Position numbers and translations under genes: made by a program
Shown: positions 12,624-64,000 of the stretch, piece by piece
Position numbering within the stretch: position 1 is the first letter of the stretch
Layout of the letters: each line of letters starts with the position of its first letter
Notes under the pieces: model-generated
Told to the model about the DNA's origin: nothing
Database searches by the model: none
Seen by the model: only the letters and a program-made list of their open reading frames with translations
Source: a virus
IMG/VR virus record: IMGVR_UViG_3300045988_174992
DNA length: 64,000 nucleotides
Strand: one strand, 5' to 3'

Positions 12624-12643
12624 GATTTATTTAATTTAAAATT

Positions 12644-12913: not shown

Positions 12914-12925
12914 GATAAATGAATT

Positions 12926-13268: not shown

Positions 13269-13583
13269 TTATTTGGATAAAGTCTTTATTTCTTCTACAT
13301 TTATCTTAGGAATAATATATAAAGTATCTTTATGGTTTCCAAAAAAGTAAATGTTGTCATTTGTTTGTCCATATATGACAGAGGTGGCATTCACTTTATT
13401 CTTTGTTCCATCTTTATAAGTTACTTCAAATGTGGTCGATGTGTTATGTACTGGAGTTTCTTCAACATAAGAATCATAAGTATGTTGGGTTTGAGTACCA
13501 ATGATACATCTAGTGTACCCTAAATATATGAACAAAGATACAAATAAAATTATTACAAAATTTCGTATTGTCTTATCACTCAT
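13269..13583 (-). CDS. membrane-anchored hypothetical protein (104 aa)
   Basis: N-terminal hydrophobic segment FVIILFVSLFIYLGY. Overlaps the upstream gene by 8 nt. Confidence 0.6.
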   Translation of the reverse strand: MSDKTIRNFVIILFVSLFIYLGYTRCIIGTQTQHTYDSYVEETPVHNTSTTFEVTYKDGTKNKVNATSVIYGQTNDNIYFFGNHKDTLYIIPKINVEEIKTLSK

Positions 13584-14259
13584 ATTTCTTTGTAGTATAG
13601 TTGTACATCAATATTCTGTCACCAAAAGAAAAGTCAAATTTCTCTTTCCAGCCTTTCTTATATTGAATCTTAGAAAAATGACATTTCAATTTAATTAAAT
13701 CATCATAAGTCAATCCATGTTCTGGATCTGTTTGTATAAGCCTTGGAAATTGCTCTATCAACATATCTGTATCATCATCAACAATCATATAGTAGCTTGG
13801 TTTGAACTCATCAACCCATACTTTGATTTCATCACCACGACACCATCGCTTACCATTTGTTCTACCTAAATTCAATCTGCAAGTTTGTCCTATGATATAA
13901 GGAGATATCTTATTCAAATATGGTATGCTATCTAAAGATTTGAATGTTTCATAGATATTACCAGACCTTCTCCAAGATGATGACAATACCAACATGAAAC
14001 CTGTTGATTGCAAAAATTCAATCAACATATCAACTGCTTTGGGATCACAAAAATTATGATAATTAGGATTTGGATTCTTGTACAATTCTTCAGCCCAATC
14101 ACCACTATTCAACACACCATCAATATCAAGAAATATGATAGGAGTACAACATTTTTCTTTCCAATCTGCATCAACAATACCTGCATAATTAGTTAGCCAC
14201 ATTCTCTTCTTTGGATCCTTTGGATACATGAAAACCGGATTATTATTACGATATGCCAT
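13576..14259 (-). CDS. HAD-superfamily phosphatase (RNA-repair-associated HAD type)
   Basis: Motif I is IIFLDIDGVLNSG, followed by LVLSSSWRRSG and MIVDDDTD. This is the pattern of HAD domains found with RNA-repair ligases and kinases. Confidence 0.6.
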   Translation of the reverse strand: MAYRNNNPVFMYPKDPKKRMWLTNYAGIVDADWKEKCCTPIIFLDIDGVLNSGDWAEELYKNPNPNYHNFCDPKAVDMLIEFLQSTGFMLVLSSSWRRSGNIYETFKSLDSIPYLNKISPYIIGQTCRLNLGRTNGKRWCRGDEIKVWVDEFKPSYYMIVDDDTDMLIEQFPRLIQTDPEHGLTYDDLIKLKCHFSKIQYKKGWKEKFDFSFGDRILMYNYTTKKYE

Positions 14260-14264
14260 AGTTT

Positions 14265-14459
14265 TTACTTCTCTACTTCTTTGTATTTTCTCTTCAAAAA
14301 TACTACAAACTTATCATCATACATGTGTTCAACACTAAATGCTTCCCAACCATCAGCACCATCTAGCTTACTATCTACTTGGTCATAGGTAATATCGTGT
14401 ACTGTTACAATTTGCGTACGATATTCCCATTTGTCATCTTCAATCATTTTGTATATCAT
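14265..14459 (-). CDS. hypothetical small protein (64 aa)
   Basis: ORF packed between neighbours with 3-5 nt spacers. Confidence 0.5.
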   Translation of the reverse strand: MIYKMIEDDKWEYRTQIVTVHDITYDQVDSKLDGADGWEAFSVEHMYDDKFVVFLKRKYKEVEK

Positions 14460-14462
14460 ATC

Positions 14463-14939
14463 TTATTTACCGTTAGTGAGTTTCCAAATCTGCTTATCTA
14501 CATCCTTCTTTACAACTTCAAGATAGTTGTTATATGCATCAATTATATGCTGAATATCCTCACCATTCAAAATTGTGAAATTCCAATGTTCATTCAAATC
14601 TTCGATTGTATGGTCATTTCGAAGAATGTAAGGATTCATGAACTTATGGAGAATATCAAATACATCATGACGAGAAGTAACATCTAACTCTGTATCAATA
14701 GTAATTTCTGGGTCATCACTATAAAGATACTTCTTTACAAAGTAATAAGCTGGCATGCTGATAATCCAACAGCCATCTAAAACTTGATAACCACTAGGGT
14801 ATTTCGACATACAAATTCGAATATCATTATCTGAATTCAACAAATTCTTTACTGAATATCTGTCTTTATGAGTAAGCTTTACTGCTTCAATTGTATTTGG
14901 ATTGATAAACATAATAATGTATTTTATTAATATAAACAT
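14463..14939 (-). CDS. hypothetical protein (158 aa; alternative start at 14912)
   Basis: ORF downstream of promoter 14973-15006. No motif recognised. Confidence 0.6.
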   Translation of the reverse strand: MFILIKYIIMFINPNTIEAVKLTHKDRYSVKNLLNSDNDIRICMSKYPSGYQVLDGCWIISMPAYYFVKKYLYSDDPEITIDTELDVTSRHDVFDILHKFMNPYILRNDHTIEDLNEHWNFTILNGEDIQHIIDAYNNYLEVVKKDVDKQIWKLTNGK

Positions 14940-14972
14940 TAAAACCTGTTCTGTATCTTAAATTTTTTACAT

Positions 14973-15006
14973 TTAAAATATAGAACAGGTTTTATAAATT
15001 TCAAAA
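14973..15006 (-). promoter_or_regulatory. host-type promoter inside a long inverted repeat
   Basis: Minus strand reads TTTTGAAATTTATAAAACCTGTTCTATATTTTAAATGTAA. AAAACCTGTTCT (14941-14952) pairs with AGAACAGGTTTT (14982-14993). The motif-terminal ATG is followed immediately by TAA. Confidence 0.55.
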
Positions 15007-15017
15007 TAAATATAAGA

Positions 15018-15671
15018 TTAACTAATTTTTACTACATTTGCCGGAACAATCTCACCATCATCTCTAATATAGTCCCATCTGGGTGTTAAACCACTATCTT
15101 TATATTTTCCATAAGTATATAAATTAAAATTTCTACCGTAAACTGTTGTGGTTTCATTATATCCACTAGTAACCCTAATACTAAAATCTTCTATTTTAGG
15201 TTCACTTGCACTATCCATCATAGAAATTTCTACATATTGTACTTCACCTGATCCATCAGATTTTACATTAAGCAAATGAAATCTGTTTGGGTTATCAGTG
15301 TATGTTGGAGCAAAATCCCTAGTTGTTAAAAAAGCACCACAATCCTCATATAAAAGTGGATCAAACACTATATTTATAGCTAATTGTAAAGAATATTGAT
15401 GCAGTTGTTGAGTTTTCTTAAAATAAAATGTTTTCTTAATACCCCCACCACCATTTCTCCAATCCCCATATATTGTTTCACAATAGCAATCATAATTACT
15501 ACTATCTCCATCATCATATCCATTATAAGTTATACTATAATTTCCATTAGAATCTGGTCCTGTCATATTACTGCTAAAATTATTTGGATAGTGATTAATG
15601 TCACCACTAAAACATTCTGATTCATATTTTTCTACACTACCACTTTTAGTATAACATCTTGCTGAAGCCAT
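15018..15671 (-). CDS. hypothetical protein (217 aa), possibly structural/receptor-related
   Basis: ORF divergent from the fibre-like genes. Gly/Asn/Tyr/Asp-rich N-terminal half. No motif recognised. Confidence 0.6.
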   Translation of the reverse strand: MASARCYTKSGSVEKYESECFSGDINHYPNNFSSNMTGPDSNGNYSITYNGYDDGDSSNYDCYCETIYGDWRNGGGGIKKTFYFKKTQQLHQYSLQLAINIVFDPLLYEDCGAFLTTRDFAPTYTDNPNRFHLLNVKSDGSGEVQYVEISMMDSASEPKIEDFSIRVTSGYNETTTVYGRNFNLYTYGKYKDSGLTPRWDYIRDDGEIVPANVVKIS

Positions 15672-15904
15672 ATTATTTCATAAACAGCGCTTTAGGGAAG
15701 TTCCCTCTATTCTACATAACTCCTCATGTTGCACTTTATGGCATATCATATAAGTGTATTTCATTAATTATTCATAAAATTACAACGAGTCAGTAGCGAT
15801 TCATTGATTTGTAGCTATATAAAAATAAAATGGTATACCTGTTGAACATTAAATTTCTTTCAAGTTCAATTTTTATATAACTAAACATTGAACTTCAAAA
15901 TCAA

Positions 15905-17503
15905 ATGCCAGTAATACTTCAAAGTGGATATGTATTTCAGGGTGATAGCAAAGCCTTACCAAAGATAGTAACAAACAGTAAGCTTGGATCTTTTGTATTC
16001 AGGGGTACTTCTTGGGACTGGTCTAACTTGGTATTCAGCGGCTCTGCTAACACCTTGCAATTTGTTCCTGATCCTAATGATGGAGGATTGCAGGGGGACT
16101 TCAGTATAGGTACAGGTTCTGTTACTTCAGCTTATCCTAACAAACAATCTACTTTTGATTTTGATCCTAATAAGGTCTTTGAACTAGAACCTGCTGGTGG
16201 AACAGGCTATTTTGATTTGAAGGCAAGAGAGCTTACTTATACCTGGAAGTTTGGACCTATCCTTGCTTCTTACCAATACACTAAATCAGATAACTATATG
16301 GAATTTATTGAAGGTAAATTTTTATTTACCGGTATTTCTAATTCTTATAGAGGAGTAAACCATACAACAGTTTATCCTGAAAATAAATTAGAAGGAAATA
16401 CATATATCCAATATCATTATCTTGATGTATTACGTTCTTCTGTTTCTTTAAATTCTAATAATTGGACAAACAAACCTGTTGAAAGTTCTTCTACTGACTA
16501 TACTGTTTCTTTTTCTATAGGTCCTAACAATACACCAGAAGCAGCTTATACTGAAGTGAGATTCATAGGTTTTTCTAATGAAGCTTTGGGATGGGAATAT
16601 TTTGAACCTTCATCATCTTTTGGAACAATTAAACTAAATCATCCAAGAGCAGTTCCATTTACAAATGAAGAAAATCAACGTTCTTTACCTGATGCTAGCC
16701 TACCTAAAGAATTCACTTTGTTGAAAGTTTGGCAAAAACCTAACATTCTCTATTATGCTCACTTGAAGTTTATAAATTTGGATTATACAGATTATGATAA
16801 TCCACCATCTAATGCAAATGTATTGGAACATTGGTATTCAAATTGGGATGTAAAAAGAAGAGAAATATTGCTTTACATAGAATTTGGAGTAAGCCCTAAT
16901 GGTGGTAAGACAATATGGTGGAATGGGCTAGAATCAAACCCAAATATAGGAGGTACAATAGGAGCTAAGCTTGTTGCTAGAGGTATTACTACCATAGTGC
17001 CTAATGACATCAATAAGTACTTGACTGCCACTCTACTCAATTATTCTACTAAACCAGGAAATGTAAATGGTAAACCAGAAGGTGAATCACCTGATAACAG
17101 ATATAACATATCTACATCTTCTGCTACAGTTCATGGTACTAATACATTCAAATATGTAAGAATACCTATATGGACCGATTTACCAAATGATGAATATGCA
17201 AACAACAGTGAAAACACTATCCAGAAATATGAATGTATCAATTTTTCTGATGTACAAACAAATACTACAGCTACACATAATGAAGATATTGGTATAGATG
17301 CAAGCACTAAAAGGAGATCTGATGAATATTGGGCTAAATATCAAGAAAATTCTGAATCATCGGAAAAATTCCAGATAGGAAGAAAAAACAGAACTAACAA
17401 TTGGAGAACTGATATTCATATAGACTTGTTCTACAAGAAATATCCTTTGAAATATAAAGGGTCAACTGATGGTAAGACAGTAACTTCTAAATTAACTTCC
17501 TAA
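15905..17503 (+). CDS. putative tail fibre / structural protein (532 aa)
   Basis: Long ORF immediately upstream of the 1653-aa fibre-like ORF. Ser/Thr/Asn/Gly-rich beta-type composition. Confidence 0.6.
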   Translation: MPVILQSGYVFQGDSKALPKIVTNSKLGSFVFRGTSWDWSNLVFSGSANTLQFVPDPNDGGLQGDFSIGTGSVTSAYPNKQSTFDFDPNKVFELEPAGGTGYFDLKARELTYTWKFGPILASYQYTKSDNYMEFIEGKFLFTGISNSYRGVNHTTVYPENKLEGNTYIQYHYLDVLRSSVSLNSNNWTNKPVESSSTDYTVSFSIGPNNTPEAAYTEVRFIGFSNEALGWEYFEPSSSFGTIKLNHPRAVPFTNEENQRSLPDASLPKEFTLLKVWQKPNILYYAHLKFINLDYTDYDNPPSNANVLEHWYSNWDVKRREILLYIEFGVSPNGGKTIWWNGLESNPNIGGTIGAKLVARGITTIVPNDINKYLTATLLNYSTKPGNVNGKPEGESPDNRYNISTSSATVHGTNTFKYVRIPIWTDLPNDEYANNSENTIQKYECINFSDVQTNTTATHNEDIGIDASTKRRSDEYWAKYQENSESSEKFQIGRKNRTNNWRTDIHIDLFYKKYPLKYKGSTDGKTVTSKLTS

Positions 17504-17539
17504 ATAGAAAGAATTTAAATTACATTATTAAAATACTCT

Positions 17540-20500
17540 ATGGCAGATTACGGAAATTATTTTACTTCAAATAGTGGAAATTACAACTACAATACAAGAG
17601 GGCATTCTTATGATGATTCTGATTGGGTTATTGTTGGATTAGCAAATTCTGGTAATGTATCTCAACCTATTCCACACCCTAATGGCGCTGAATTTACAGG
17701 TAACAATACAACTTGTTATTTCTATATCACTAATCACATGTCTAAGCCTAATAGGGAAGTAAAGACTGGTAACGACTATGTTGCTTATTTCAATTGGGCA
17801 ACGGCTAACAAAAATACTATAGGATCTGTGGATGGAGATTTCAATTTCTACCCATTTGGAAGCAAAACTGATTCTAGATTTATTGAACCAACAGGATTAG
17901 ATGATACTAAACATGGTGTAAGTCCTTATAGCAATTCTAACAACAACGTCATATCTAGAACTAACTTAACTGTAAAAGGTACAACTTTTACAGCTGGTTA
18001 TCGTAGACATAAGATACAATATGAACCAAGCATACGATATGATTTAAATAGCTACAATTATGGTACAAATGACAATTATAAAAGTGATGGTAGTACTAAG
18101 GCAACTGGTGGTCGTGTTGTAACACAAAGATATGATGCTTTTCAAACTTTCTATAATATAGAAGACCCATATAGTGTACTCAATATCTCTATAGCAAACC
18201 ATGATGATGCAAAGTCAAGTTCTCCAACTTTCTGTACATTAACTAACAACAAGTCAGAATACAGAATAAGTCATTCTTATACTTACAACCCATATACTAA
18301 TTCAGCTACTTGGAATAATACTAATTATCTTTCATTTACATACAATACATTGCCTACTTATCCAAAAGAATTAGTTTTTACTTATGGGTCTAATTACAAT
18401 TCTGTTTCTTATGATGGTGATACTATAACAGTTGAAGCTAAAGCCCGTTATAATGGTACTTATGACAGATTTACAACTTCTACTGCAAATGATGATGGGT
18501 TTTCTTCTTATAAGAGATATGTAGATGTAACATATAGCTTATCTACTTTTAACAGTTCTACTATACCTACAGGTTCAAATACATATACATTCAGAATATG
18601 GCAACCTGGTTCTAAGTTAGGAATATCTTATACTTGGTCTATAGATAACAATCCATCTTGGGCACATCTTTCTACAACCTCCGGAAATACAACAAAGGTA
18701 ACATTTGATGACCAAGGAGATGACAAGCCAAGTGTAGGTGGTACTCTTTCATTATCATTGAACAATACTACTATTTCTAATGGAGGATCTACCACTGGTT
18801 CTGTTTCTGGTGTATCTTGGACAGCTCCTACTAATAAAAGCGCTCGTTCTTGTGTACTAAGGCAGAATATGACTGTTACAAATTATTGTGCACAAAACAT
18901 TACACCTAAGACTAGTTCTGGTCAACCATATCAATCTTTGACTTTAACACAGAATGGAATGACTTGGAACAATCCATCATTTGATATGAAATGGAAAGTT
19001 ACCCAAAAAAGTAAGACAACCACAACTTATAATGATATATATGGACATGGTTGGCCTACTATTAACATAGGTGGGATATCAACATCAGATGGAACAGAAA
19101 AGACAACTGGATGGTATTACAACACATCATCAAAATCAGTTTCTGTTTTAATGCCAACAATAAGCAAACCTTGGGTAAATACTTATAGTGGTGGTAAAGT
19201 AACTATAACAAAAGGATCTAATACAGCTATATCTTATAAAGGTGGTAGTATAACTATAAATTTAGATCCTAATATTACATTCAGACAGGGTTTTACATCT
19301 GGTGTTTCTGAACGTACTTGGACAATATCTAATACTGCAAATAATGCAACAAATCAAGAATATTGGGCGTTAAATAAATTTAATGATGTTGTTATCAAAC
19401 TTCCTGCTATAGCTGCTGCAAATCATGCTTTTGGTAATGCAACATTGTCATGGAGAGACACCGGTACCCAAGATTTAACATTTTCTAAATCAAGCAGAAC
19501 ATGGAATAATTCTAATTCTGATGACAGTTTTACAACAACATTAGCTTCTAACTTACCTTATATTGGTAGTTGGACAGCTTCTGCTAGCGGTGGCTCAATT
19601 ACATTTAAATCTACTACTAAAAATTCAAGTTCCACATCTGGTACTATATCATTTTATGGATCTACTTATCAGGATGGTGTACTGACACCAAGTCCATCTA
19701 CTATAACTATATCACAAAACGGTACAAGCATATCTGGTACTATCTATATAAAAGCAGAAGGTACTGGTATAAAAAGTTGTGATGGATCCTCAGTATATCC
19801 TATAGATGGTAATACAAGAACTGCTAGTTATTCTTTAAAACCTAAAGAGTATATACATGTTACTAAAGTAGAAAATTTAGCGGCAACAATAACGTCACCA
19901 ACAAATAGAAATGTAATATGGCAAGGTGAAACTATTTATTTTGGTAAAAAATCAGGAACTGTAACAACAGAAACTACAGCTTCTAAAACATATCCTTATA
20001 AAATAACTGTAAGTAGTAATATAGTTAGTACTTATCCATCTAATGCTACCAATGGAGTTATATTAAGTAATAGTGTTACACCTTATGATGCAAATTATGT
20101 TATTGAATATTCAGTTGATAGTGGTTCTTGGACCACTAGTACTACGGCCACTATAGGACAAAGACCTGCCGTGTGGTCATCAAGTCCATCATTAGTAGTT
20201 AGATCTAGTGGTTGGACAAATGTAAATGAAGGTATTTATAAATACACAAGAGGATGGTATGCTTCACAAGGATCTACAACACATACAGTAGCAATAAGAG
20301 TAATAGATAGAAATAATAGCGATAAAGTATTTAGTGGAACATCAGCATCTATAACTCAAGATGGTCAAGGTGGATATTCAACAGATACAAGATATACATT
20401 TACCACTGGTGGAACAAATTGTACTACAAGCACACCTTCAGCAACTGGTTCTAGTGCAGGAAATTATGGGTCATTTACTGTAAGTCCTTGGTCGCCAATA

Positions 20501-29102: not shown

Positions 29103-31058
29103 TTATGCATCTTCAACTACAGCATCTTCTACTTTTACATCATCTGATTTTTCTTCTTTCTTATCATTGTCATGATTTGACGCATTCTCTTCCTTTGCAT
29201 TTCCTTCCTGTGTCTCTGTCTTATCAGTACCATCTTGGCTCTTTTGCTTATCGGCATAGAATTTCTCAACTATTGGGTTCCAAACTTCTTCCAACTCTTT
29301 CTTAGCTTCCATGATCTTATCATGGTCTTTGTCCTTCAATACAACAACTGATTCCAATGCATCAAGTTTTTCTTGTGCTTTAGCTCTATCCTCATCTGAT
29401 GTAGCTTTGACAAAATCTTCATTGACAATCATCTCTTTTGTATTGAACATGTAACGTTCTGCATCATTGATGTCATTAGTTTCTTTTGTCTTCTTTTCAT
29501 CAGCTTCCTTGAACTTCTCAGCATCTTCCTTGATTGCTTTGATTTCCTCATCAGTAAGTGTATTGTTACTGATTGTAATGTGCTGTTCTTTATTAGTACC
29601 AAGATCCTTAGCAGTAACAGTAACGATACCATTTGCATCAATATCAAAGCAAACTTCAATCTGTGGTACCCCAGCTTTTGCCATAGGAATTCCATCCAAT
29701 CTGAATCTACCAATAGACTTATTACCAGAAGCAATCTTACGTTCACCTTGCAATACATTTACCTCAACCATAGGTTGGTTATCAATAGATGTGGTGAATA
29801 CTTGCTTCTTCTGACATGGAATTGTTGTATTTGCTTCAACAATAGGTGCCATCATATCTCCCTTAGTTTCAATACCTAATGACAATGGAGTAACATCAAG
29901 AAGCAACAAATCACCAGTAGAATTACCAGCAAGAATATCAGCTTGCTTAGCAGCACCTAATGCAACTGCTTCATCTGGATTTACAGATTGATTCAATGGC
30001 TTATTGAATTCCTTCTTCAATGCCTCTTGCAATGATGGAATACGAGTTGTACCACCTACAAGTAAGATACAATCAATATCATCATACTTCTTACCAGCTT
30101 TCTCAACAGCAACCTTTGCTTTTTCAACTGTGCGATCATTCAAATTCTTTACAAGAGATTCAAACTTAGCACGAGAAAGTGTCATAGCAAGATTCAATGG
30201 TGCACCATCTTTCATAGAAATATATGGAAGATTAATCTCTGTCTGTGTTGAACTTGACAATTCAATCTTTGCTTTTTCTGCAGATTCTACTACACGAGCA
30301 TAAGCCATATTATCCTTTGTCAAATCAACATCATCTGACTTCTTAAATTCATCAACTACCCACTTTACAATAGCATCATCATAGTCTTTACCTCCAAGAT
30401 ATACATCACCATTTGATGCAAGTACTTCAGCCATACCATCTGACAACTCAAGGACAGAAACATCAACAGTACCAGTACCTGAATCCACTACTACAACAGT
30501 CTTGTCTTTCTTGTCTTCCATCAAGTTAGCTGCCAATGCTGCTGATGTTGGTTCATTAATCACACGAAGTACATTCAATCCAGCAAGCTCACCAGCTGTC
30601 TTAGTTGCTGTACGAGCAGCATCACCAAACCAAGCTGGTACTGTAATTACTGCATCTTTGATTTCCTCACCAACAAAATCTTCAGCAATTTTTTTCATCT
30701 TACCAACAATCATAGATGAAATCTGTTCTGGAGAATATTCCTTATCATCAATCTTAACATAAGGCTTACCAGACTTATTTACAATATCATAAGTTGCAAG
30801 CTTTTGCATCTTCTTTACATTTTCATCATTGAAATCAGCACCCATCAAACGCTTTACAAAACTGATAGTGTTCTTTGGATTTGTTACCATTGCACGCTTT
30901 GCGGCATTACCAATCTTCACTTCATCCTTTGTAATCTGTACTACAGATGGTGTTGTTCTTGTTCCTTCTTCATTTACTACTACAACTGGTTTACCTGCCT
31001 CAATTACTGCTACACACGACATACCCGTGCCTAGATCTAGGCCTAAAACTTTACTCAT
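29103..31058 (-). CDS. dnaK: DnaK (Hsp70) chaperone
   Basis: 651 aa. GLDLGTGMSCVAV, DAVITVPAWF, VIDSGTGTVDVS-type and LVGGTTRIPS motifs. A substrate-binding domain and acidic C-terminus are present. Confidence 0.95.
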   Translation of the reverse strand: MSKVLGLDLGTGMSCVAVIEAGKPVVVVNEEGTRTTPSVVQITKDEVKIGNAAKRAMVTNPKNTISFVKRLMGADFNDENVKKMQKLATYDIVNKSGKPYVKIDDKEYSPEQISSMIVGKMKKIAEDFVGEEIKDAVITVPAWFGDAARTATKTAGELAGLNVLRVINEPTSAALAANLMEDKKDKTVVVVDSGTGTVDVSVLELSDGMAEVLASNGDVYLGGKDYDDAIVKWVVDEFKKSDDVDLTKDNMAYARVVESAEKAKIELSSSTQTEINLPYISMKDGAPLNLAMTLSRAKFESLVKNLNDRTVEKAKVAVEKAGKKYDDIDCILLVGGTTRIPSLQEALKKEFNKPLNQSVNPDEAVALGAAKQADILAGNSTGDLLLLDVTPLSLGIETKGDMMAPIVEANTTIPCQKKQVFTTSIDNQPMVEVNVLQGERKIASGNKSIGRFRLDGIPMAKAGVPQIEVCFDIDANGIVTVTAKDLGTNKEQHITISNNTLTDEEIKAIKEDAEKFKEADEKKTKETNDINDAERYMFNTKEMIVNEDFVKATSDEDRAKAQEKLDALESVVVLKDKDHDKIMEAKKELEEVWNPIVEKFYADKQKSQDGTDKTETQEGNAKEENASNHDNDKKEEKSDDVKVEDAVVEDA

Positions 31059-37656: not shown

Positions 37657-37953
37657 CATCTTATCTGTTATTACTAACAGGACTGACTATATGTTCCTTA
37701 TTATATAAATTGTATTTTCTATATATTAAGGCCTCACGCTCCGAATTGGTGCTTATCTCCAATTCTACTCCCTTACACTCATCAGGGATAGTCGATACAC
37801 CTTTATGACAATTAAAATTGTCAATTTAGCACGGATCTCATCCATCTATTATAAATGGACCTAACCGTTAGCAGCAGCTTATTTATTTTCTTATGCTGCC
37901 ACACCCATTAAGCATGGTTCGAGAGGTTTTAGATGGGCTGTAGTATTGCACTT
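37657..37953 (-). ncRNA. group I self-splicing intron (297 nt, no ORF) in nrdD
   Basis: Exon 1 ends ATGGGT (U at the splice site). The internal guide GCCCAT (37933-37938) pairs with exon AUGGGU, giving the U.G pair. The intron ends ...GATAAGATG with a terminal G. Joining gives VMSTMG-CRTYNGYD, matching the conserved NrdD ..PMGCR.. motif. Many hairpins are present, including the GNRA-capped CUGUUA-GUAA-UAACAG (37665-37680). Confidence 0.8.
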
Positions 37954-39408
37954 ACCCATCGTGCTCATCACTTCATATCTAGTGAATTTCTCTGCTGGTT
38001 TTACTTTAATTTCCCAACTATCTTCAATAGAGTCATAATGACCTTCTAATGACAAATAATCTTCATAATCTGGATGTTCTGACAACCATTTAGCAAATGC
38101 ACAGTATGTTGATTTGGAGAAATTGAGCAAATTCTTCAATGCACGATTCTTTTGCTCTCTATCAAATATATTACCTTTCCAGTTAGTACTCCAATCAACA
38201 TTACAATAATTAGGATAATCACGTTGTGTTGTAGATTTCAATGCTAATCTGAACAAATCATAGTTAGGACCAGGATTATTTTTAGAGCCATGAATTTCTT
38301 TACTGTATTGGAATATGCAACATGGGAATATAGCAGTACGATGATACTTACCAGTACCTTCCAATGTCATATTGATTAATGCTCTAATTATTTCACGACC
38401 TTCCTTTAAAGTACATGTACCATAATTGATGCTAGAAAATGGCAGCTGGGCACCACTACGAGATTGCAAACTATTTAGATTATGACTCATTGCTTCAGTA
38501 GCTTGACTTAATTCCTTCAATGTAGAATTCCAAGCCTTCTTCCATATCATTTTCTTCAATGGTTTCAACAATCCAACACCGGTATAAATTCTATCATCAA
38601 CACTTATATGTTTGATTGATTTAGGATCAATGTTAGGTTTAGCCCACTTCATCAATGGAATTCCATCACACCAGTTTTTGTAATGCTTAAAGAAACTCTT
38701 ACGGAAATATGGTATCATTGACCAATCAAGATGTGATGCAGAAATACCACCAAACTGTTCAAGTGATTGTACTTGGAAATTTACAGCTATCAATTGGAAT
38801 GCCGTACTTAATGAATTAGCAGGACGAATATCACACTGTTTCAATGTAATACCATGTTCAAGAAGAATATCAATCGGATCAGTTAAACAATTATGCTGTC
38901 CAACTGCAAAATTTGATAAATCATGCTGATAAACCATATTTCCTTCATGATTCTTTCTTGCCATCTTCGACATGTTGTTTTTCAAAGCATAATCTTTACA
39001 AACAACTGCTCCAGCTTCACCAATACGGCCACTAAAGCTGTTTTCATCAAGATTGGCATTCTGGTTTACTACATTCTTGGCATAAAGTTTTGTAGCAATA
39101 TTCTTAGCAAGCTTTGTATTTGATTCTCGATACCTAGATCTCTCTTCTCGGTAAATGATGAATTGTTCTGCTGCTTCATTCTCTCCTACCGACATGAGGA
39201 AATCTCTCAAGAAATCTTGTACAGTCTCAATATCAACTACATCTTCTTTCATAGTTTCTAACCAAGCTCTTATTGATTCTGTAAACTTACTAATTAGTCC
39301 ATCAGGAACTTCTTTCTTCACTCCATTCTTATATACTTTTTCAAGTGCATGAATTGGTTTGTTAAGATCAAAGCCTTGGACTTTACCATCTCTTTTCTTT
39401 ACTTTCAT
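37954..39408 (-). CDS. nrdD: anaerobic ribonucleoside-triphosphate reductase, exon 1 (ATP-cone plus core)
   Basis: N-terminal ATP-cone-like MKVKKRDGKVQGFDLNKP. The track ORF reads 20 codons into the intron before a stop. Confidence 0.85.
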
Positions 39409-39634: not shown

Positions 39635-40717
39635 TTATCCTCCGACTGTTTTATTTTTATTCCACTTATTGAACTTAGAATTACTGATAGTAAATCCAGC
39701 AGCACCTGGATGTCCACCTGCTGTCTTTACCAAACTCTTGATCCATCTTCCAAGATTGTATTCTCTATCATCATCTTGTCTTACATTATATACAGAACCA
39801 GACCATTTTCCATTAGGCAAATGTTTGAATACAATAGCATGATCTACTTTATCTGCTACTGATTCGAACATTCTGCTTGATGATGGACCTTGACAGAACA
39901 ATGCAACTGCCTTACGTTCCTTTCCATTGATAATGAACTTCCAATCAAAATCACCGTAGTTGTTTACTAACTGCTTATTCTTATAGTTTTCATAATCAAC
40001 AATACTTTCTGCTTCAAGTACGGTTTCACTAATGAAGTTTCTTCCATAATCAGATTCAGAACCATCATCATACATGATATGCTTTACACAATCATATACT
40101 TTATCAAAATCTAGCTCAAAGTCTCTATTGATTACAAGATTGACACCATAACAATCATCTAATTCAAGACAATACTGATTTGGATGGAAGCTGTCCCAAC
40201 CGGCAAGATATTGGAGCAACTGTGGCATATTACCCTTATTCTGGTTGATTCTAAGTACATCAAACAAATGTTCATAAACCAATCCAATTGTTGAAGTAGT
40301 TGTTGCTCTATATCCAGGTGTATCATCATACCCATGTTGCTTTGCTAATGCTAATGCTGGGCCATGATGGTCAAACCAACTAAAGCCTAAATGGCAATTA
40401 TATGCATCACGCAAGAACTTCATTACTTTCCAATTGTTGAATGAAATATCAAGCATATATACATGTCCAAATTTGGTTACCCAATTATAAGGGCACATAT
40501 CATTATTTCGGTCTTTAGATAAAGTATCTAGCATATTGTAATCTGCACCAAGCAAAGTAACATTTTCCTTCTTAGTCTGTAAATTTTTAGATATGCAATC
40601 AACAATCCAATGATACATCAATGCGGCAGAAAATACACCATCATTATCTTCTTTATGATATACAATCAATACTTTATTTTCATTCTCTTTTGTCAGTTTC
40701 AAAACATTCTTCATCAT
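39635..40717 (-). CDS. DHH/DHHA1-family phosphoesterase (NrnA/RecJ-like)
   Basis: Motif I is VYHKEDNDGVFSA, motif III is WFDHHGP, and the DHHA1 signature is TAGGHPGAAGFT. Confidence 0.8.
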   Translation of the reverse strand: MMKNVLKLTKENENKVLIVYHKEDNDGVFSAALMYHWIVDCISKNLQTKKENVTLLGADYNMLDTLSKDRNNDMCPYNWVTKFGHVYMLDISFNNWKVMKFLRDAYNCHLGFSWFDHHGPALALAKQHGYDDTPGYRATTTSTIGLVYEHLFDVLRINQNKGNMPQLLQYLAGWDSFHPNQYCLELDDCYGVNLVINRDFELDFDKVYDCVKHIMYDDGSESDYGRNFISETVLEAESIVDYENYKNKQLVNNYGDFDWKFIINGKERKAVALFCQGPSSSRMFESVADKVDHAIVFKHLPNGKWSGSVYNVRQDDDREYNLGRWIKSLVKTAGGHPGAAGFTISNSKFNKWNKNKTVGG

Positions 40718-51744: not shown

Positions 51745-52875
51745 TTACTTCTCTGTTGTAACAATTCGATTCAAATCAAGGTTATCAGGAGAGAACTTAT
51801 TTACAGGACCAGCACCAATAGTCTTAATTTTTGATGCATCAACACCTGCCTTGATAAGTGCATTCTTAACTGCTACTGCTCGCTTAAGTGAAAGCTCTTT
51901 ATTATATCTAGTAGAACCTTCAGTAGAAGCATATCCAGTTACCTTAATAGTACCATCAACATCTTTCAATGCATCAGCGATATCATAGATATTTGCCATA
52001 GATGTTGATTCAATCTTAGCAGTACCCTTCTTAAACTGAACCTTTGGATAAACCATCTTAGTAACTTCATTAGTCTCAATCAAAGTATTTGTCTTTGTAA
52101 GAGAATCATGCATTACCTCAATAGTTGCATTAGCATCATTAAGACTCTTCTGAAGTGTATTGATCTTTCCATTCAACATATCAACCTCTGCCTGATCATA
52201 AAGCTTAGCCTTGTTGAAAAATCGAGTGCCGTTACTTGTCTTGAAGTGATATACAATACCAGCAGTAACTTGTCCAATAGCACGTTCTGTATTGAATGAA
52301 CCTGTACCACTCAAATCATATACAACTGCTGGTCGCAAAGCAATAGTCCATGCATCTGTTACATTATAATTCAGATTAAGACCAGCCTTAACAAGCAAAG
52401 CATTGTACTCATTATGTAAAAGGAAACCGTAACCAGGACCTGCATTAGCTTCTACTTCAAACTTACGTGGCTTACCATTATACTTCCAAATAGCATTAGT
52501 AAGATTTACACGACCTGTCAAATAAGTTGAAATTCCATCAAATGTATTTGCACAATGAAAATGCGTTACCGGTTTTGACCAATTACTAAGTCCATTGATA
52601 TTTGTATTACCCTCAAGTGTTACACCAAATACTGGAGTAATCTCCTTATTGATAACAATACCGGCTACAGCACCCTGTGGCCAATTCCACTGATTGAGAT
52701 TAGTCTCAACACCACCAACTACACCAGCAGAAACATTGTCTGTGAACTTAGAACTACCGGAATAGTTAGACTGTGTCTGAGCATTAACACTAAATACTGC
52801 TGTCAAAGCCAGCAACATTGTCAAAATAAACTTCTTCATTTTTCTTTTAATTTTACTTTTTAAATTATTAAACAT
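51745..52875 (-). CDS. OmpA-family outer-membrane protein (beta-barrel plus OmpA C-terminal domain); likely true start at 52839
   Basis: Signal peptide MKKFILTMLLALTAVFSVNAQ. Gly/aromatic-rich beta-strand region. The C-terminal FKKGTAKIES...VTGYASTEGSTRYNKELSLKRAVAVKNALIKAGV matches the OmpA-like peptidoglycan-binding domain. Confidence 0.85.
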   Translation of the reverse strand: MFNNLKSKIKRKMKKFILTMLLALTAVFSVNAQTQSNYSGSSKFTDNVSAGVVGGVETNLNQWNWPQGAVAGIVINKEITPVFGVTLEGNTNINGLSNWSKPVTHFHCANTFDGISTYLTGRVNLTNAIWKYNGKPRKFEVEANAGPGYGFLLHNEYNALLVKAGLNLNYNVTDAWTIALRPAVVYDLSGTGSFNTERAIGQVTAGIVYHFKTSNGTRFFNKAKLYDQAEVDMLNGKINTLQKSLNDANATIEVMHDSLTKTNTLIETNEVTKMVYPKVQFKKGTAKIESTSMANIYDIADALKDVDGTIKVTGYASTEGSTRYNKELSLKRAVAVKNALIKAGVDASKIKTIGAGPVNKFSPDNLDLNRIVTTEK

Positions 52876-58572: not shown

Positions 58573-58882
58573 GATCCTTTTCTTGCAATTTACATGATAC
58601 TTCATGAATAATATTGAATATGCTATCAATAAGATAGTCAAATTCTTCTTTATATTCACTACAAAGCCTTGAACCTTCTAATTGCTTATGTACATTTTTC
58701 ATTACATGATTCCATCTGTCTGGTTGTACAATAGGTTCACATGCTTTCTTCTTAACTCTTCCTATCAATATAGCATTATTCATTCTAGAAATCAAGAGGT
58801 TAACCAATGATCGGTCACCTCTTGTAATTTCTGCTCTACATGATTTGAGAAGTTTCAAATCCGAGTTAGTTATGTTAGTCAT
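58559..58882 (-). CDS. hypothetical protein (107 aa from ATG 58882)
   Basis: MTNITNSDLK... starts 8 nt inside the end of the U32-like gene. The longer track ORF (to 59014) lies within that gene. Confidence 0.5.
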   Translation of the reverse strand: MTNITNSDLKLLKSCRAEITRGDRSLVNLLISRMNNAILIGRVKKKACEPIVQPDRWNHVMKNVHKQLEGSRLCSEYKEEFDYLIDSIFNIIHEVSCKLQEKDHDNR

Positions 58883-60020
58883 ACAAATTATGTTCTTTAG
58901 CAAATTGTTCACAATAACGACAAGAATAACCACATTCATGGTTTTCACATTCCCATCCATTTCCATCCATCCACTTATTGATGAATCCATCAAGTTTCTT
59001 ATTTGGAATATCAATATCTGTTTTAGACTTCAATTCTGTCTTACCATCATAAATCGAGGAAAGAGGTTTCCATAATCCGAGAAGATTTCCATCATAAGTT
59101 TCTGACATATAAGCATTCATTATATATTCAAGATACTCAGTTGTTCCTGTTCTTCCTGATAACTTAAAATAATTTACTCCTGTTTTTTCTCGATAAATTT
59201 TCTGATCCTCTGGTCTAATCCATCGCATTCTTAGCCAAGCTTCTGGAGTAGATGAACGTGCAGACATACAATAACCCATTGGATAATTATTGTAAGACAT
59301 ACTATCCTCTTTTGTTTTGTTACATGCATGACAAAGATAACAAGAATCTCTGAATACACAATGAGTAGCATAATGATTTCCATTTGCATCTACTCCGGCA
59401 ACACCACAAAATTCATTTGCCATACATTCTAATATGCAACCATTTCTATCACAATAATCTTGTGCTTTAATCAAAAATTCCTTATTACGATTCTTAAGAA
59501 TTGAATTACAGAACTTATTTACTCCAAATGTTTCATGATAATACTTCAACTGGGTTACAGTATCAATATGAGAAATACATGACATCTCAATTTCAATATC
59601 CGATACTTCTCTAATAAAAAGCAACATCATTGGATTTGCCACAGTAATACGTACTACACCAATATTTTCAAGCCATTTTACAAGATCCTGAATATCCTTC
59701 TTATGATTCAACATCTCTATCTTTGAACCATAAGGTTGAATTGAATTCATTGTATAGTTGAATGCAATATTGTTATTCTTCAACTTCTTTACATAATTTG
59801 CAAAGAATTCTTTATCAATATCTGGCAATCTCCAACCTGGTCTTGCAGTTACTGCTTCATTACTTGCATCAGATCCAAAAAATTCTACAATCTGTGACTT
59901 ACCCTTATATTTCTTATTCAACTCTACAGCAACATCAATCAATTTAGGATCGAAATTACAACCTACTTTATAAAAGTTCATGTTCTTGTTACTGTAATCA
60001 AAATTAGGTTTCCAACTCAT
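58875..60020 (-). CDS. peptidase-U32-family (PrtC/RlhA/TrhP/UbiU-like) Cys-rich protein
   Basis: TIM-barrel-like N-terminal layout typical of U32 proteins (..VEFFGS..ARPGWR.., IAFNYTMN, IGVVRITVANP). Cys cluster CDRNGCILECMANEFCGV...HCVFRDSCYLCHAC sits at the position of the U32 Fe-S/signature region. Confidence 0.5.
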   Translation of the reverse strand: MSWKPNFDYSNKNMNFYKVGCNFDPKLIDVAVELNKKYKGKSQIVEFFGSDASNEAVTARPGWRLPDIDKEFFANYVKKLKNNNIAFNYTMNSIQPYGSKIEMLNHKKDIQDLVKWLENIGVVRITVANPMMLLFIREVSDIEIEMSCISHIDTVTQLKYYHETFGVNKFCNSILKNRNKEFLIKAQDYCDRNGCILECMANEFCGVAGVDANGNHYATHCVFRDSCYLCHACNKTKEDSMSYNNYPMGYCMSARSSTPEAWLRMRWIRPEDQKIYREKTGVNYFKLSGRTGTTEYLEYIMNAYMSETYDGNLLGLWKPLSSIYDGKTELKSKTDIDIPNKKLDGFINKWMDGNGWECENHECGYSCRYCEQFAKEHNLYD

Positions 60021-60874: not shown

Positions 60875-60909
60875 CATTATTAATATAGAATCTTTATAGA
60901 AAATTTCAA
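60875..60909 (-). promoter_or_regulatory. host-type promoter
   Basis: Minus strand reads ATTGAAATTTTCTATAAAGATTCTATATTAATAATG. Confidence 0.5.
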
Positions 60910-61199
60910 TTTAATTGCATCTTTTTACTTAAAATTCTCTGATAGATACTATACCTTACTTCTATACTAGCTAAGTTTAATTTTATATTTGATTCACGTT
61001 CTGATGCAGACAATGGCCTTTCTGATATGTATGGCACAGTCAAGTCATAATCAAATGTATACCAAGTCTTCCAAAGAAACTTGTGCTTCTTCTTATATAT
61101 AGCCCATTTGATATATACAGTAGTTTCTTCTGTTGGAGGAAACCCTACTTTTATATTTACTGGTCTACTATCTCTTTCTATTTCTACTATTCTACTCAT
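60906..61199 (-). CDS. hypothetical protein (97 aa from ATG 61199)
   Basis: The track start is a TTG inside the promoter motif. The ATG at 61199 (MSRIVEIERD...) abuts the -7 box. Confidence 0.55.
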   Translation of the reverse strand: MSRIVEIERDSRPVNIKVGFPPTEETTVYIKWAIYKKKHKFLWKTWYTFDYDLTVPYISERPLSASERESNIKLNLASIEVRYSIYQRILSKKMQLN

Positions 61200-61238
61200 A
61201 TTTATAATATAGTAAAGTATGTATAAACTTTTCAAAAG
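61200..61238 (-). promoter_or_regulatory. host-type promoter, leaderless arrangement
   Basis: Minus strand reads CTTTTGAAAAGTTTATACATACTTTACTATATTATAAATATG. Confidence 0.55.
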
Positions 61239-61273
61239 TATTTTTACATATATAAGATTTATTCAATTTGAAA

Positions 61274-62341
61274 ATGAAGTACAATGGAACAAACTACATT
61301 ACTGAACTGAAATCTATAGAATATATAGTAGAGAAGAACAGTAACAGTAAAGTAGAAAATCATACACAATTTACTAAGCTTAAGAAAGTAGAAAGAATAA
61401 TATTGATAGGTGAACTTTACTTGAATTCAGTAAAGATGCTTAAGAGAGATAAGATAAAAGTAGAATATGCAGATCCAACTAAGCTCAATTTTTCTTTCAA
61501 AGATGATAAGGTACATATATACAGTGGAGAGAAAGATTTACCTGATATAGTACTTACTAAAGCAGATTCTAAGAATACCATAGTATTGATGCGTAGTGGA
61601 TATACTAAGGAAGTGATAGCAGCTTTACTTGATGCCATCCAAGAATTAGATATACTGATATTGAACAACCAAGAAGCAGTAGCTATGTCATCTGACAAAT
61701 ATGCAACTGCATGTTTCTTGACAAAATCAGAACTTCCACAGCCAAAGTATGTACTTGCAACTTCTAGTGATATAGATAAAGAAGATCATAAGAAGCTAGA
61801 TGAAAAGCTAAAGCAACTCTATGGTAAGCTGGATGACGAATTAAAGTATGTTTGCAAGATATTGAATGGTCATGGTGGTAAAGGTGTATTTTGCTGTCGC
61901 GGAAAAAACATTGTATCTATATTGCAATGTTTGTTCAAACTGAAAGAAAACTGCCCTATACTCATACAAGACTTTCAAGAAATAAAAGATGGTGATATCA
62001 GAGCTCATGTACTTACATTGAATGGAAAGCAAAAGATATTGTCTTCTATCATGAGAAAGAAGGGAAAGGATTTCCGAACTAATCTCAGTCTTGGGTGTGA
62101 TATGGAAGATAATTACAAGATGACTCCAGAACAAGAAAAACTAGCTTTAGATGCTGCTAAAGCATCTGGATTGGAATGGTGTGGTGTAGATATGCTGCCA
62201 TTACAGAATGGAAATACTATAATAGTAGAATTGAATGGTGCACCAGGACCAAGTTCACCTATCAATGATCCTAACATAGAAGAAAATAATTTTAAGTTCT
62301 TCGAAAAGCTAGTAGAAGCTATAAATGAACTTTGTAAATAA
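61274..62341 (+). CDS. RimK-like ATP-grasp ligase 1
   Basis: The first ATG is 61274 (the track starts at a TTG). VCKILNGHGGKGVFCC, IQDFQE..DGDIRAHVL, RKKGKDFRTNLSLGC and WCGVDMLP...IIVELNGAPG match the RimK/ATP-grasp signature. Confidence 0.75.
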   Translation: MKYNGTNYITELKSIEYIVEKNSNSKVENHTQFTKLKKVERIILIGELYLNSVKMLKRDKIKVEYADPTKLNFSFKDDKVHIYSGEKDLPDIVLTKADSKNTIVLMRSGYTKEVIAALLDAIQELDILILNNQEAVAMSSDKYATACFLTKSELPQPKYVLATSSDIDKEDHKKLDEKLKQLYGKLDDELKYVCKILNGHGGKGVFCCRGKNIVSILQCLFKLKENCPILIQDFQEIKDGDIRAHVLTLNGKQKILSSIMRKKGKDFRTNLSLGCDMEDNYKMTPEQEKLALDAAKASGLEWCGVDMLPLQNGNTIIVELNGAPGPSSPINDPNIEENNFKFFEKLVEAINELCK

Positions 62342-62342
62342 A

Positions 62343-64000
62343 ATGGAAAAGGAATATAAGAATATAGAAAATGCAAACATAAATGAAGCAATGGCGCTTC
62401 TGAAAAATGATACCAAGTTAGAGATAAAGAATGTAATATGCTTCTATGTTGGAGAAAATAAAGTAAAGAGCTATGATGAGGCAGTAAAAGAAAAAGAAGA
62501 AGATTGGTCTTATCAAGACTATTTGACTATTTGCTGTCATAAGAGAAAGCTGAATCTTGTATGGTTGAATAAAGCTACGGTACGATTTACCTATTCTAAT
62601 CATATCATATCTATAGATGATGATATAACAGATATGCATTTCTCATTGAAGCATTCTAATATTCATGATACTATCATATTTCAAGGTCAGGCCAATGATG
62701 ACAATAAGAAAAACTATATTGGATTGATGAGAGCATTTGAATATGAAGGTTTCTTCATGCTGAATACTATAGATGAAATCATCATAGCATCTGACAAGTA
62801 TCTTGCATCTAACTTGCTAGCCAAAGAGAATATTCCACAACCTGGATATGTATTGATAACAAAAGAATTGATGGAAGACTTGAATACTGAATGCCATGAT
62901 ACTAGAGAAAGTTTCTGGAAGATGCTTGATTCTATTTATAAAGATAATGAGAACATAAATGAACTGAAAGAAAACAGGCAATATGTAGTAAAGATATTGA
63001 ATGGCAGTCTTGGTATTGGTGTATTCATTTGTAATCATGATGAAATAGAAGGAATACTGCAAGCAATGTTTACTGTTGACAAAGAAGCAGAATTCATCAT
63101 ACAAGAATATAAAGAGAATACTGGAGACATTCGTGTACATGCATTTTCTGTTGATGGTGCCAATTATGAGATACTTGCTTGCATGAAACGTGATAAGATA
63201 AGTGGTGACTTCAGAAGCAATGTTTCATTAGGAGCTAAGACTGAAGAATATCAGATGACAGACAAACAAAAAGAAATTGCATTGAAGGTCGCTAAGCTTT
63301 CTGGATGCAGATGGGTTGGTATTGACTTGATGGCTTGTACTGATGGAGACTTTGTTATAGAATACAATTCAAGTCCTGGTGTTCAAGGAATATCCCAACA
63401 AATCAAGCATAACATGTTTGATATTGTGATAGATAAGATAGAAGCATACATGAAGAATAATGCTATATATTATACTGATGACTTTGAATTTGGTCAAGAC
63501 AAAGGCAGATGCTTTACATCATACAATAAAGACACTATTCTTGAACTTTGGGAGCATGATTGGTCATTCATATCTAGCAAGAGACAAGAAGTAATGTACA
63601 ACTGCTTACTTATGCAACCAGGTCTTTTCTATAAGATACATGGTAAAGACAAACCAGAATATGGATTAGATTGCTCTGGATACATCAAATATGTAATGAA
63701 GAAGGCATTGAATGTAAAGACACCTAACATGTGTGTTGACTTCTTCACTATATTTACTGATAATGATTGGGAAAGAATATCTGTTGATGATCTTAAGCCT
63801 GGTGATATAGGTGTAAAGAATGAATCTACTATATTGAATCACTGTGGTATATATGCAGGTGCAGGAAAATGGTTTGATACTTCTTATCTTTATGGAGTAC
63901 AATTATCTGACTATTCACACTTCAAATACTTCTTTAGAATAAAGAATATAGATACTGATGCTTTGGGAGAAAAGACTGATCATTTAGTAAGAAAACTCAT
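62343..64000 (+). CDS. RimK-like ATP-grasp ligase 2 fused to a C-terminal NlpC/P60 cysteine peptidase domain (3-prime partial, runs off window)
   Basis: Not in the ORF track because there is no stop within the window. Hand translation from ATG 62343 is open to 64000. ATP-grasp motifs: VVKILNGSLGIGVFIC, IIQEYKENTGDIRVHAF, KISGDFRSNVSLGA, RWVGIDLM...VIEYNSSPG. NlpC/P60 motifs: YGLDCSGYIKYVMKK, KPGDIGV, LNHCGIYAG. Confidence 0.75.
   Translation, partial: MEKEYKNIENANINEAMALLKNDTKLEIKNVICFYVGENKVKSYDEAVKEKEEDWSYQDYLTICCHKRKLNLVWLNKATVRFTYSNHIISIDDDITDMHFSLKHSNIHDTIIFQGQANDDNKKNYIGLMRAFEYEGFFMLNTIDEIIIASDKYLASNLLAKENIPQPGYVLITKELMEDLNTECHDTRESFWKMLDSIYKDNENINELKENRQYVVKILNGSLGIGVFICNHDEIEGILQAMFTVDKEAEFIIQEYKENTGDIRVHAFSVDGANYEILACMKRDKISGDFRSNVSLGAKTEEYQMTDKQKEIALKVAKLSGCRWVGIDLMACTDGDFVIEYNSSPGVQGISQQIKHNMFDIVIDKIEAYMKNNAIYYTDDFEFGQDKGRCFTSYNKDTILELWEHDWSFISSKRQEVMYNCLLMQPGLFYKIHGKDKPEYGLDCSGYIKYVMKKALNVKTPNMCVDFFTIFTDNDWERISVDDLKPGDIGVKNESTILNHCGIYAGAGKWFDTSYLYGVQLSDYSHFKYFFRIKNIDTDALGEKTDHLVRKL

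Follow-up and report, generated by a model that had tools for sequence, protein, structure and literature searches.

Known Systems That Couple a Ligase to a Peptidase

RimK of Pseudomonas polyglutamylates ribosomal protein S6 at its C-terminus, and the retropepsin RimB, a proven endopeptidase of the glutamate tail, also has a stimulatory effect on RimK; the RimBK hybrids that occur naturally are active enzymes (PMC11957791; PMC7343187). Our analysis concerns two adjacent plus-strand genes, ORF1 and ORF2 (ORF, open reading frame), at the right end of a 64,000-nucleotide stretch of viral DNA (IMG/VR record IMGVR_UViG_3300045988_174992; the whole stretch is referred to below as the window). ORF1 encodes a RimK-type ATP-grasp ligase and ORF2 a second such ligase fused to an NlpC/P60 cysteine peptidase; by analogy, this cassette is best read as a variant of the RimK-RimB logic that uses a cysteine peptidase and several ligases. 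It shares with RimK-RimB (RimABK) and RimBK the RimK-type ATP-grasp fold and active site and the pairing or fusion of ligase with peptidase; RimB acts on the product of its ligase, and two phage relatives of the cassette (P0119 and gp066 of YerA41) carry a RimB-like domain. The cassette differs in that its peptidase is papain-like, with a Cys-His-Asp triad, instead of a retropepsin, and lies C-terminal to the ligase; in that it has two ligase paralogues, and its relatives up to four ligase domains, where RimK-RimB has one; and in being phage-encoded, with scores under the cut-off of the NCBIfam RimK family (TIGR00768).

Other described systems share parts of this design. In glutathionylspermidine synthetase/amidase (GspSA), one polypeptide joins an ATP-dependent amide ligase to a papain-superfamily cysteine amidase able to reverse the ligation. 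An original prediction, made for this DNA from its letters alone, had drawn the analogy to GspSA, and the likeness stands at the level of architecture only: the GSP_synth and CHAP families of GspSA are unmatched in the cassette (Pfam, E up to 1), the domain order is reversed, and a polyamine or thiol substrate is without indication here. RimK with its trimming protease RimB, including the RimBK fusions, is the closer precedent (PMC11957791).

LysX and ArgX, also of the RimK family, ligate an amino acid onto the C-terminal Glu of the amino-group carrier protein LysW, and a hydrolase later frees the product; these ligases are the second-best structural matches of the ORF2 ligase, but no LysW-like zinc-ribbon carrier is encoded beside the cassette, and biosynthetic genes are absent. 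The release enzyme of the LysW system is a metallopeptidase. The alpha-L-glutamate ligases MptN and CofF likewise belong to the RimK family, with NCBIfam E-values close to that of rimK_fam, but they serve archaeal cofactor pathways and have no associated peptidase, and the cassette scores far under their equivalog cut-offs. On the peptidase side, the NlpC/P60 DL-endopeptidases (MepS/Spr, CwlO, LytE, and SagA) and phage tail lysins have the fold and catalytic triad found in ORF2; unlike them, ORF2 has no export signal, wall-binding domain, or tail domain, and its peptidase is fused to an ATP-requiring, putatively cytoplasmic ligase.

Phage genes annotated as "ribosomal protein S6 glutaminyl transferase" also encode RimK-like ATP-grasp proteins in large phages (cyanophages S-RIM12 and S-CAM8, Pelagibacter phage Mosig, Melnitz, and YerA41 gp066) and are 25-29% identical to ORF2, but each is a single ligase with no NlpC/P60 domain, named by homology only. 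Such genes are scattered through large phage genomes and are routinely given this label without experiment. RimK-like genes in phages and the coupling of RimK to a peptidase are already known; what is new is their arrangement here, and in the literature searched, neither an ATP-grasp-NlpC/P60 fusion nor a multi-ligase RimK cassette in Lak-like or jumbo phages is described.

Gene Organization

ORF1 (61274..62341, plus strand; 355 amino acids) is a stand-alone ligase gene that starts with ATG at 61274 and stops with TAA at 62339-62341; an alternative TTG start lies at 61268. ORF2 (62343..64000, plus strand) is cut by the end of the window, with 552 open codons from its ATG at 62343. An alternative in-frame ATG at 62325 (MNFVNK-MEKEY...) would give a 17-nucleotide overlap with ORF1, and gene callers chose the equivalent ATG in the near-identical homologues P0001 and L003. 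From the ATG at 62343 the two genes are separated by one nucleotide (62342), and not by the two originally counted; in relatives they overlap by 4-17 nucleotides or are separated by 2.

The original prediction had remarked that the second gene was missing from the list of ORFs; the list omits ORFs that run off the sequence, hence the absence, and ORF2 is real. It is encoded at 89-98% identity by seven IMG/VR contigs of 148-294 kb and at 97% identity by two contigs binned into metagenome-assembled genomes (MAGs), and the closest contigs are 97-98% identical to the window in protein and 93% in DNA (L003). Near-identical contigs (P0001 and L003) complete the gene as had been proposed, extending it without interruption to a full length of 583-588 amino acids. 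By comparison with them, the window misses just 30 codons and the stop of ORF2; this tail is modelled with low confidence, and most homologues do not have it.

Ligase Modules

That both genes carry ATP-grasp domains of the RimK type is borne out by Pfam, by the PDB, and by the invariant residues. ORF1 matches Pfam RimK at 1.4e-20 (74.1 bits, gathering score 21) and GSH-S_ATP at 1.2e-9, and ORF2 matches the same families at 1.5e-31 (110 bits, gathering score 21) and 1e-12. Sequence searches of the PDB match both to RimK (ORF1 to 7qys at 1.3e-12; ORF2 at 4e-20). In NCBIfam the top match of each is rimK_fam (TIGR00768; 101.4 bits for ORF1 and 120.4 bits for ORF2, both short of the family cut-off), followed by MptN, LysX, GshB, and CofF. 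The two ligase modules are paralogous (33% identity, E 2e-40), and 146 homologues of ORF1 were found.

The catalytic core of ORF1 (residues 118-326; 61625..62251, plus strand) was delimited by alignment to Pseudomonas and E. coli RimK. Residues invariant in 21 sequences are K195 (codon 61856-61858), the G199-H-G-G loop, D241, R243, R268-T-N270, D306 (62189-62191), and E319 and N321, which lie in the motif VELNGAPG (62225-62248). The ligase module of ORF2 (about residues 28-375; 62424..63467, plus strand) was placed from Pfam, the PDB, and an AlphaFold2 model, and its conservation was read from an alignment of 22 full-length homologues that are 49-85% identical to the reference P0001; P0001 is 97% identical to the ORF2 of the window, whose residue numbers are used throughout. 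Invariant among the 22 are Lys217 (codon 62991-62993), a Gly-rich loop, Arg291-Ser-Asn (R291-S-N293, within 63207-63221), Asp328 (63324-63326), Glu340 (63360-63362), and Asn342 (63366-63368). The ATP- and Mg-binding and catalytic residues of ORF1 and ORF2 align with those of RimK, and since the active-site residues are invariant in the homologue alignments, where identities run from 49 to 98%, both ligases appear catalytically competent.

The AlphaFold2 model of the full-length homologue P0001 (predicted local distance difference test, pLDDT, 81.7; predicted template-modelling score, pTM, 0.79) places a linker of low confidence between the ATP-grasp module (~28-375) and a papain-like domain. 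Its ligase has the three-domain RimK fold, and the top Foldseek matches are the RimK structures of Pseudomonas and E. coli (7qys, 5zct, and 4iwx; template-modelling score, TM, 0.80-0.85, target-normalised), the best being 7qys (TM 0.84, target-normalised); ArgX/LysX rank second, followed by synapsin and Ddl. The linker (about residues 376-395; 63468..63527, plus strand) is variable in the ORF2 alignment and of low confidence in the model, with pLDDT below 50 at P0001 residues 378-389.

Peptidase Domain of ORF2

ORF2 continues, as originally predicted, into an NlpC/P60 cysteine peptidase domain (about residues 396-540; 63528..63962, plus strand), delimited by PF00877 and the model. Residues 430-525 match PF00877 NLPC_P60 at 8.5e-9, and their 35.8 bits lie above the family's gathering score of 23. 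The catalytic Cys444 (codon 63672..63674, plus strand) lies in the motif LDCSGY (residues 442-447, from 63666) and the catalytic His500 (63840..63842, plus strand) in NHCGIY (residues 499-504, from 63837); Asp443-Cys444 and Asn499-His500 are invariant in all 22 homologues. Asp512 (63876..63878, plus strand; motif WFDTS), the third residue of the triad, stands at His+12, a spacing that we take to equal that of His119/His131 in Spr, and each of the 22 has Asp or Glu at this position. The complete Cys444-His500-Asp512 triad falls within the window, and the loss of a catalytic His or polar residue past its end, which the original prediction had allowed for, does not occur, as His500 and Asp512 both lie inside. 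With active-site residues thus invariant in the alignment, the peptidase also appears catalytically competent.

Modelled separately, the C-terminal domain has a papain-like fold (pLDDT 85), with MepS/Spr, Acd24020, SagA, and CwlO as the best Foldseek matches (TM 0.63-0.81, target-normalised; E to 1e-7) and LytE also among them. A homologue search with the NlpC/P60 domain alone returned three fragments only, and its relatives were taken from an exhaustive search of representatives; outside the fusion family these are tandem-repeat NlpC/P60 proteins and wall hydrolases that combine NLPC_P60 with Hydrolase_2. RimB-like PF05618 was absent from ORF1 and ORF2 in the Pfam scan, and NlpC/P60 takes its place.

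The N-terminus of ORF2, read by eye, is hydrophilic and shows no signal peptide, and no matches to SH3, LysM, PG_binding, or tail domains or to a transmembrane segment were obtained for ORF1 or ORF2 (Pfam scan; sequence). Because signal-peptide, transmembrane, and wall-binding matches are lacking, and because the ligase needs ATP, the sequence points to a cytoplasmic enzyme.

The kinship of this domain opens a rival explanation, in which the cassette would be cytoplasmic, would take peptidoglycan precursors or recycled muropeptides as its substrates, and would block or rewire wall synthesis: UDP-MurNAc-peptides would be cleaved by the peptidase at their gamma-D-Glu-diamino acid bond, and the ligases would add or replace stem-peptide residues. 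The DL-endopeptidase-type fold and the predicted cytoplasmic location are consistent with such a role, as are the lysozyme gene that follows the ligase gene in one relative (L010) and the use of ATP-grasp ligases in stem-peptide chemistry, Ddl for example, to which the matches here are weak. But Ddl and other wall ligases are much more distant from the ligases here than RimK, LysX, and MptN are, partners of Mur or Fem type are missing, and the retropepsin variant of the cassette (below) has no known link to peptidoglycan; we regard the explanation as improbable.

Comparative Architecture

A variant of the RimK-RimB logic, which we prefer, gains from comparison with related phages, and this comparison told us more than any other part of the analysis. 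A neighbour-joining tree of the ligase domains contains three paralogue clades: A, the stand-alone ORF1 type; B, the N-terminal part of ORF2; and C, the C-terminal halves of double ligases of ~700 residues together with the ligase part of retropepsin hybrids. The window and L008 combine a clade-A ligase with a clade-B ligase fused to NlpC/P60. Three Lak-like lineages (L009, L031, and L032) have a clade-A ligase, a B-C fusion, and a separate Cys/His protein of ~200 residues, and L030 has a stand-alone ligase, a ligase fused to the same Cys/His domain, and a double ligase. In L010 and L011 a single clade-C ligase is fused to a DTG retropepsin-like domain; this domain (the C-terminus of P0119) aligns with the PF05618 domain of YerA41 gp066 (L012 7824-9245), itself a hybrid of a RimK ATP-grasp and a RimB-like PF05618 retropepsin (29 bits) that is annotated "structural protein / eu-GS similarity." A LysW-like annotation, YerA41_074, is found ~3.6 kb downstream of gp066.

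The relatives thus hold one to four RimK-like ligase domains, each set with one peptidase-like domain, and fusion of ligase and peptidase arose with at least three peptidase-like types (NlpC/P60, the Cys/His domain, and retropepsin). From lineage to lineage, nothing stays with the ligases except one another and a peptidase-like domain. The ligase of this large group of jumbo phages from gut and rumen has multiplied into three clades with a peptidase-like domain always along, and the companions come from unrelated or very divergent folds. Because the pairing recurs with several peptidase-like types and the genes are tightly packed, it argues that the peptidase works on a substrate or product of the ligases and is not an unrelated lysin fused by chance. 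The functional pairing of ligase and hydrolase that had been suggested for this locus is supported, and indeed strengthened, by these comparisons, which give a strong genomic signal of what would be a ligase/peptidase cycle on a single substrate.

The ~200-residue Cys/His proteins (L009 10684-11289; L031 10178-10777; L032 6992-7615; L030 7496-8008) share the motifs DCSGF, GSHVTI(A/V)ADD, and YDWG, which in L009, L031, and L032 stand in the pattern DCSGF...GD(I/L)(I/L)VKGSHVTI...YDWG, and are always beside or fused to RimK-like ligases. Their profile matches are to Pfam ELLD and Amidase_6, both sub-threshold, and to phrog_14030 (function unassigned). Judged by these motifs they are probably an undescribed family of papain-like peptidases. 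In L009, L031, and L032 the cassette is flanked by several genes of the DUF285 (BspA-like leucine-rich repeat) type.

Proposed Function

We suggest, with a confidence that we would place at about one half, that ORF1 and ORF2 are a self-contained, tightly coupled two-gene cassette for a cytoplasmic "write-and-trim" system, because the family assignment, the structural neighbours, the pairing with a peptidase, the cytoplasmic character, and a clue to timing (see below) all fit. This confidence covers the class of mechanism; that in any particular target is much lower. The ligases would spend ATP to activate a terminal carboxylate as its acyl-phosphate and would then add amino acids, most plausibly glutamate, with the two paralogues differing in the step or residue that they handle. 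The acceptor would be the C-terminus of a protein, like S6 for RimK or LysW for LysX/ArgX, or, less likely, a Glu-tailed small molecule; the best ligase matches by sequence and by structure, RimK and then ArgX/LysX, all modify protein C-termini. Trimming, editing, or release of the peptide tail would fall to the fused peptidase, a role played for RimK by the unrelated retropepsin RimB. The purpose is probably the remodelling of a host component before late gene expression, with the translation apparatus as the leading candidate, and host S6 may be named as a leading but unproven target. Domain identities, active sites that are intact, the paralogy of the ligases, the operon-like coupling of the genes, and the repeated association of ligase with peptidase are established by the sequence and its comparison; from these we infer which residue is added and to what acceptor, how and in which direction the peptidase acts, and the timing.

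If the target is the ribosome, the cassette would represent a direct, enzyme-level hijacking of translation in uncultured relatives of the megaphages; possible uses include translation takeover through S6 tails, the tagging of another protein, and the remodelling of a Glu-tailed metabolite. The locus offers a small, clonable two-protein system for asking what phages do with RimK-type chemistry.

Several observations weigh against this proposal. The TIGR00768 cut-off is 143.4 bits, and because ORF1 and ORF2 both score under it, equivalence to RimK is not established; they appear to be divergent members of the family at best. The closest relatives of the NlpC/P60 domain are peptidoglycan DL-endopeptidases, which cut gamma-D-Glu bonds, and not peptidases of alpha-polyglutamate. 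Comparison of the Cys/His proteins with the NlpC/P60 domain of ORF2 gave no significant result by BLASTP or HHalign (5.7% probability), and homology between them is suggested only by the pattern of motifs and by the sub-threshold ELLD and Amidase_6 matches. No S6-like, LysW-like, or acidic-tailed partner was found conserved beside the cassette; in the search for acidic C-termini only ORF 10914-11270, which ends in -PEE, was returned, and this is regarded as chance. Finally, the cassette adjoins baseplate genes in most lineages.

An extension of the proposal, which we advance only tentatively and consider unlikely, is that the cassette is a template-independent line for the assembly and editing of peptides, in which each of two to four ligases would add a defined residue. 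The product might be a free peptide, or else a specific hetero-peptide of short length, or a tag, carried by a protein of the host or the phage, with the peptidase proof-reading or releasing it. Such a line, if real, would be a new chemistry of post-translational takeover by phages, distinct from simple S6 polyglutamylation, and would occur widely among gut jumbo phages, the Lak-like ones included.

Genomic Context and Timing

A short intergenic region (61236..61273) separates ORF1 from the last minus-strand ORF (60906-61235) and presumably holds a divergent promoter; in a sigma-70 scan of the equivalent region of L003, sites were no more numerous than in shuffled sequence. Directly after the ORF2 stop, L003 has a 20-bp AT-rich terminator-like hairpin followed by a U-run (11790-11835; -24.1 kcal/mol, z -6.6), at a site just past the right end of the window; having few G-C pairs, it escaped a consensus terminator scan. 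Past the hairpin, L003 encodes proteins of 603 and 117 residues, for which no useful PDB sequence match was obtained, then a 550-residue protein of the baseplate wedge (phrog_219, 1.4e-23) and, after it, an AAA ATPase. A like-sized trio (~600-770, ~115, and ~560 residues), recognised by size and order, adjoins the cassette in L010 and L030, and L031 has the same trio beside the cassette in changed order; L008, L009, and L032 lack a trio of this kind next to the cassette.

Given these neighbours, ORF2 might instead be a virion- or tail-associated peptidoglycan hydrolase that opens the wall at infection, with its ATP-grasp module as a packaged, injected effector or as an accessory. The same-strand baseplate wedge genes after ORF2 in L003, with the like-sized trio in L010 and L030 and the lysozyme gene after the L010 ligase, would suit a tail lysin, as would the cell-wall DL-endopeptidases among the NlpC/P60 kin, NLPC_P60+Hydrolase_2 proteins included, and the PHROG matches of ORF2 to minor tail and tail lysin families. 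YerA41 gp066, moreover, was detected by mass spectrometry of virions (PMC7354516), but the YerA41 virion proteome lists polymerases and ribonucleotide reductase too, and the detection is unspecific (PMC7354516). The PHROG matches are confined to the NlpC/P60 domain, with no structural tail domain; the terminator-like hairpin stands between ORF2 and the baseplate genes, which are not adjacent in L008, L009, or L032; and in other lineages a further ligase domain or a retropepsin fills the position of the NlpC/P60 domain.

Codon use bears on the same question. The window uses the standard code, and TAG is read as a sense codon in L030 (logan ERR11637157 contig, 5316-17997), where it occurs 2 times in the 1571 codons of the three ligase genes and once in the 706 codons of the upstream nucleotide-metabolism genes; four downstream baseplate and AAA genes have 26 TAG in 1940 codons, a density about tenfold that of the cassette. 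Recoded stops have been proposed as a mark of late lytic genes, as related in PMC11210395, which cites Borges et al. 2022. By this measure the L030 cassette sides with genes that are not late, an argument against a structural role, and on balance a tail lysin is unlikely.

A further alternative is that the cassette modifies a small-molecule cofactor, a nucleotide, or a DNA base, for example by remodelling the glutamate tails of folylpolyglutamates that phage thymidylate-synthase-like enzymes use or by placing an amino acid on a hypermodified base. In L008, L010, and L030 the cassette has thymidylate-synthase-like genes just upstream, and in L009 they are 4.5 kb away; the TAG density of the L030 cassette matches that of the nucleotide-metabolism genes, and the NCBIfam matches to MptN (about 1e-28) and CofF nearly equal those to RimK, but the MptN and CofF scores are 97-99 bits against a cut-off of 350. 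In the baseplate hub proteins of T4, Kozloff reportedly found folyl-hexaglutamate and also activities that add and cleave glutamate. This T4 folyl-polyglutamate chemistry is disputed in the field. T4 dihydrofolate reductase has also been described as a baseplate protein (cited in PMC12484599).

The thymidylate-synthase-like and kinase genes, however, have no homologue in the window or its close relatives, and the surroundings differ in L031, L032, YerA41, Mosig, and the cyanophages. No ATP-grasp enzyme is known to us to act on DNA bases. The thymidine modification of YerA41 is described as oligosaccharide-like, with no mention of ATP-grasp (PMC9023294), and a link to the hypermodification of YerA41 DNA was dropped as a candidate. 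A conserved linkage to nucleotide metabolism was likewise set aside, as the upstream genes of the relatives (thymidylate-synthase-like and others) gave no tblastn match in the window. Taken together, a cofactor or base as the target seems quite doubtful, and we retain the RimK-RimB-like reading.

The original prediction had also connected the cassette with a neighbouring, divergently transcribed hypermodification operon, an idea that falls under this last alternative, but the link is weak: the upstream cluster is not conserved among cassette-bearing lineages, the surroundings in L009, L031, and L032 are quite different, and no carboxylate-bearing base chemistry is indicated. In the window, the divergent upstream genes are small ORFs, then U32-peptidase-like, glucosyltransferase-like, HAD-like, and kinase-like genes. 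The U32-like gene (58875-60020, minus strand) encodes a Cys-rich protein of 381 residues that matches phrog_5757 ("peptidase," 1.5e-111) and, weakly, Pfam Peptidase_U32. The U32 family includes the RNA C5-hydroxylases RlhA and TrhP, so that base modification instead of proteolysis is conceivable for this gene.

The Phage and Other Genes of the Window

The window comes from an uncultured, Lak-related jumbo phage of roughly 250-290 kb that derives from the animal gut, and related contigs are from gut and rumen samples. The best clue to affiliation is a full-length Hsp70/DnaK-like gene (29103-31058, minus strand), 58% identical to the version in Prevotella Lak megaphage and about 50% identical to those in other huge phages. 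Megablast found no close GenBank phage at the DNA level, the best GenBank tblastn matches to ORF2 are only 25-29% identical, and no equivalent of the cassette occurs in the GenBank phage collection; BFVD contained no viral structure spanning both ORF2 domains. In cellular genomes the ligase-NlpC/P60 fusion was found only on phage-like contigs binned into MAGs.

Among the other genes of the window, an NrdD-like anaerobic ribonucleotide reductase (37891-39408, minus strand) matches only positions 4-383 of a 718-position profile and may be split or interrupted; a neighbouring ORF of 360 residues (39635-40717, minus strand) possibly supplies the remainder. A 445-residue RNA-ligase-like protein (11286-12623, minus strand; phrog_548 and phrog_968) is a nucleic-acid ligase. 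A 376-residue protein (51745-52875, minus strand) has a C-terminal OmpA-family peptidoglycan-binding domain (1.1e-18), an uncommon feature for a phage that suggests the envelope of a Gram-negative host.

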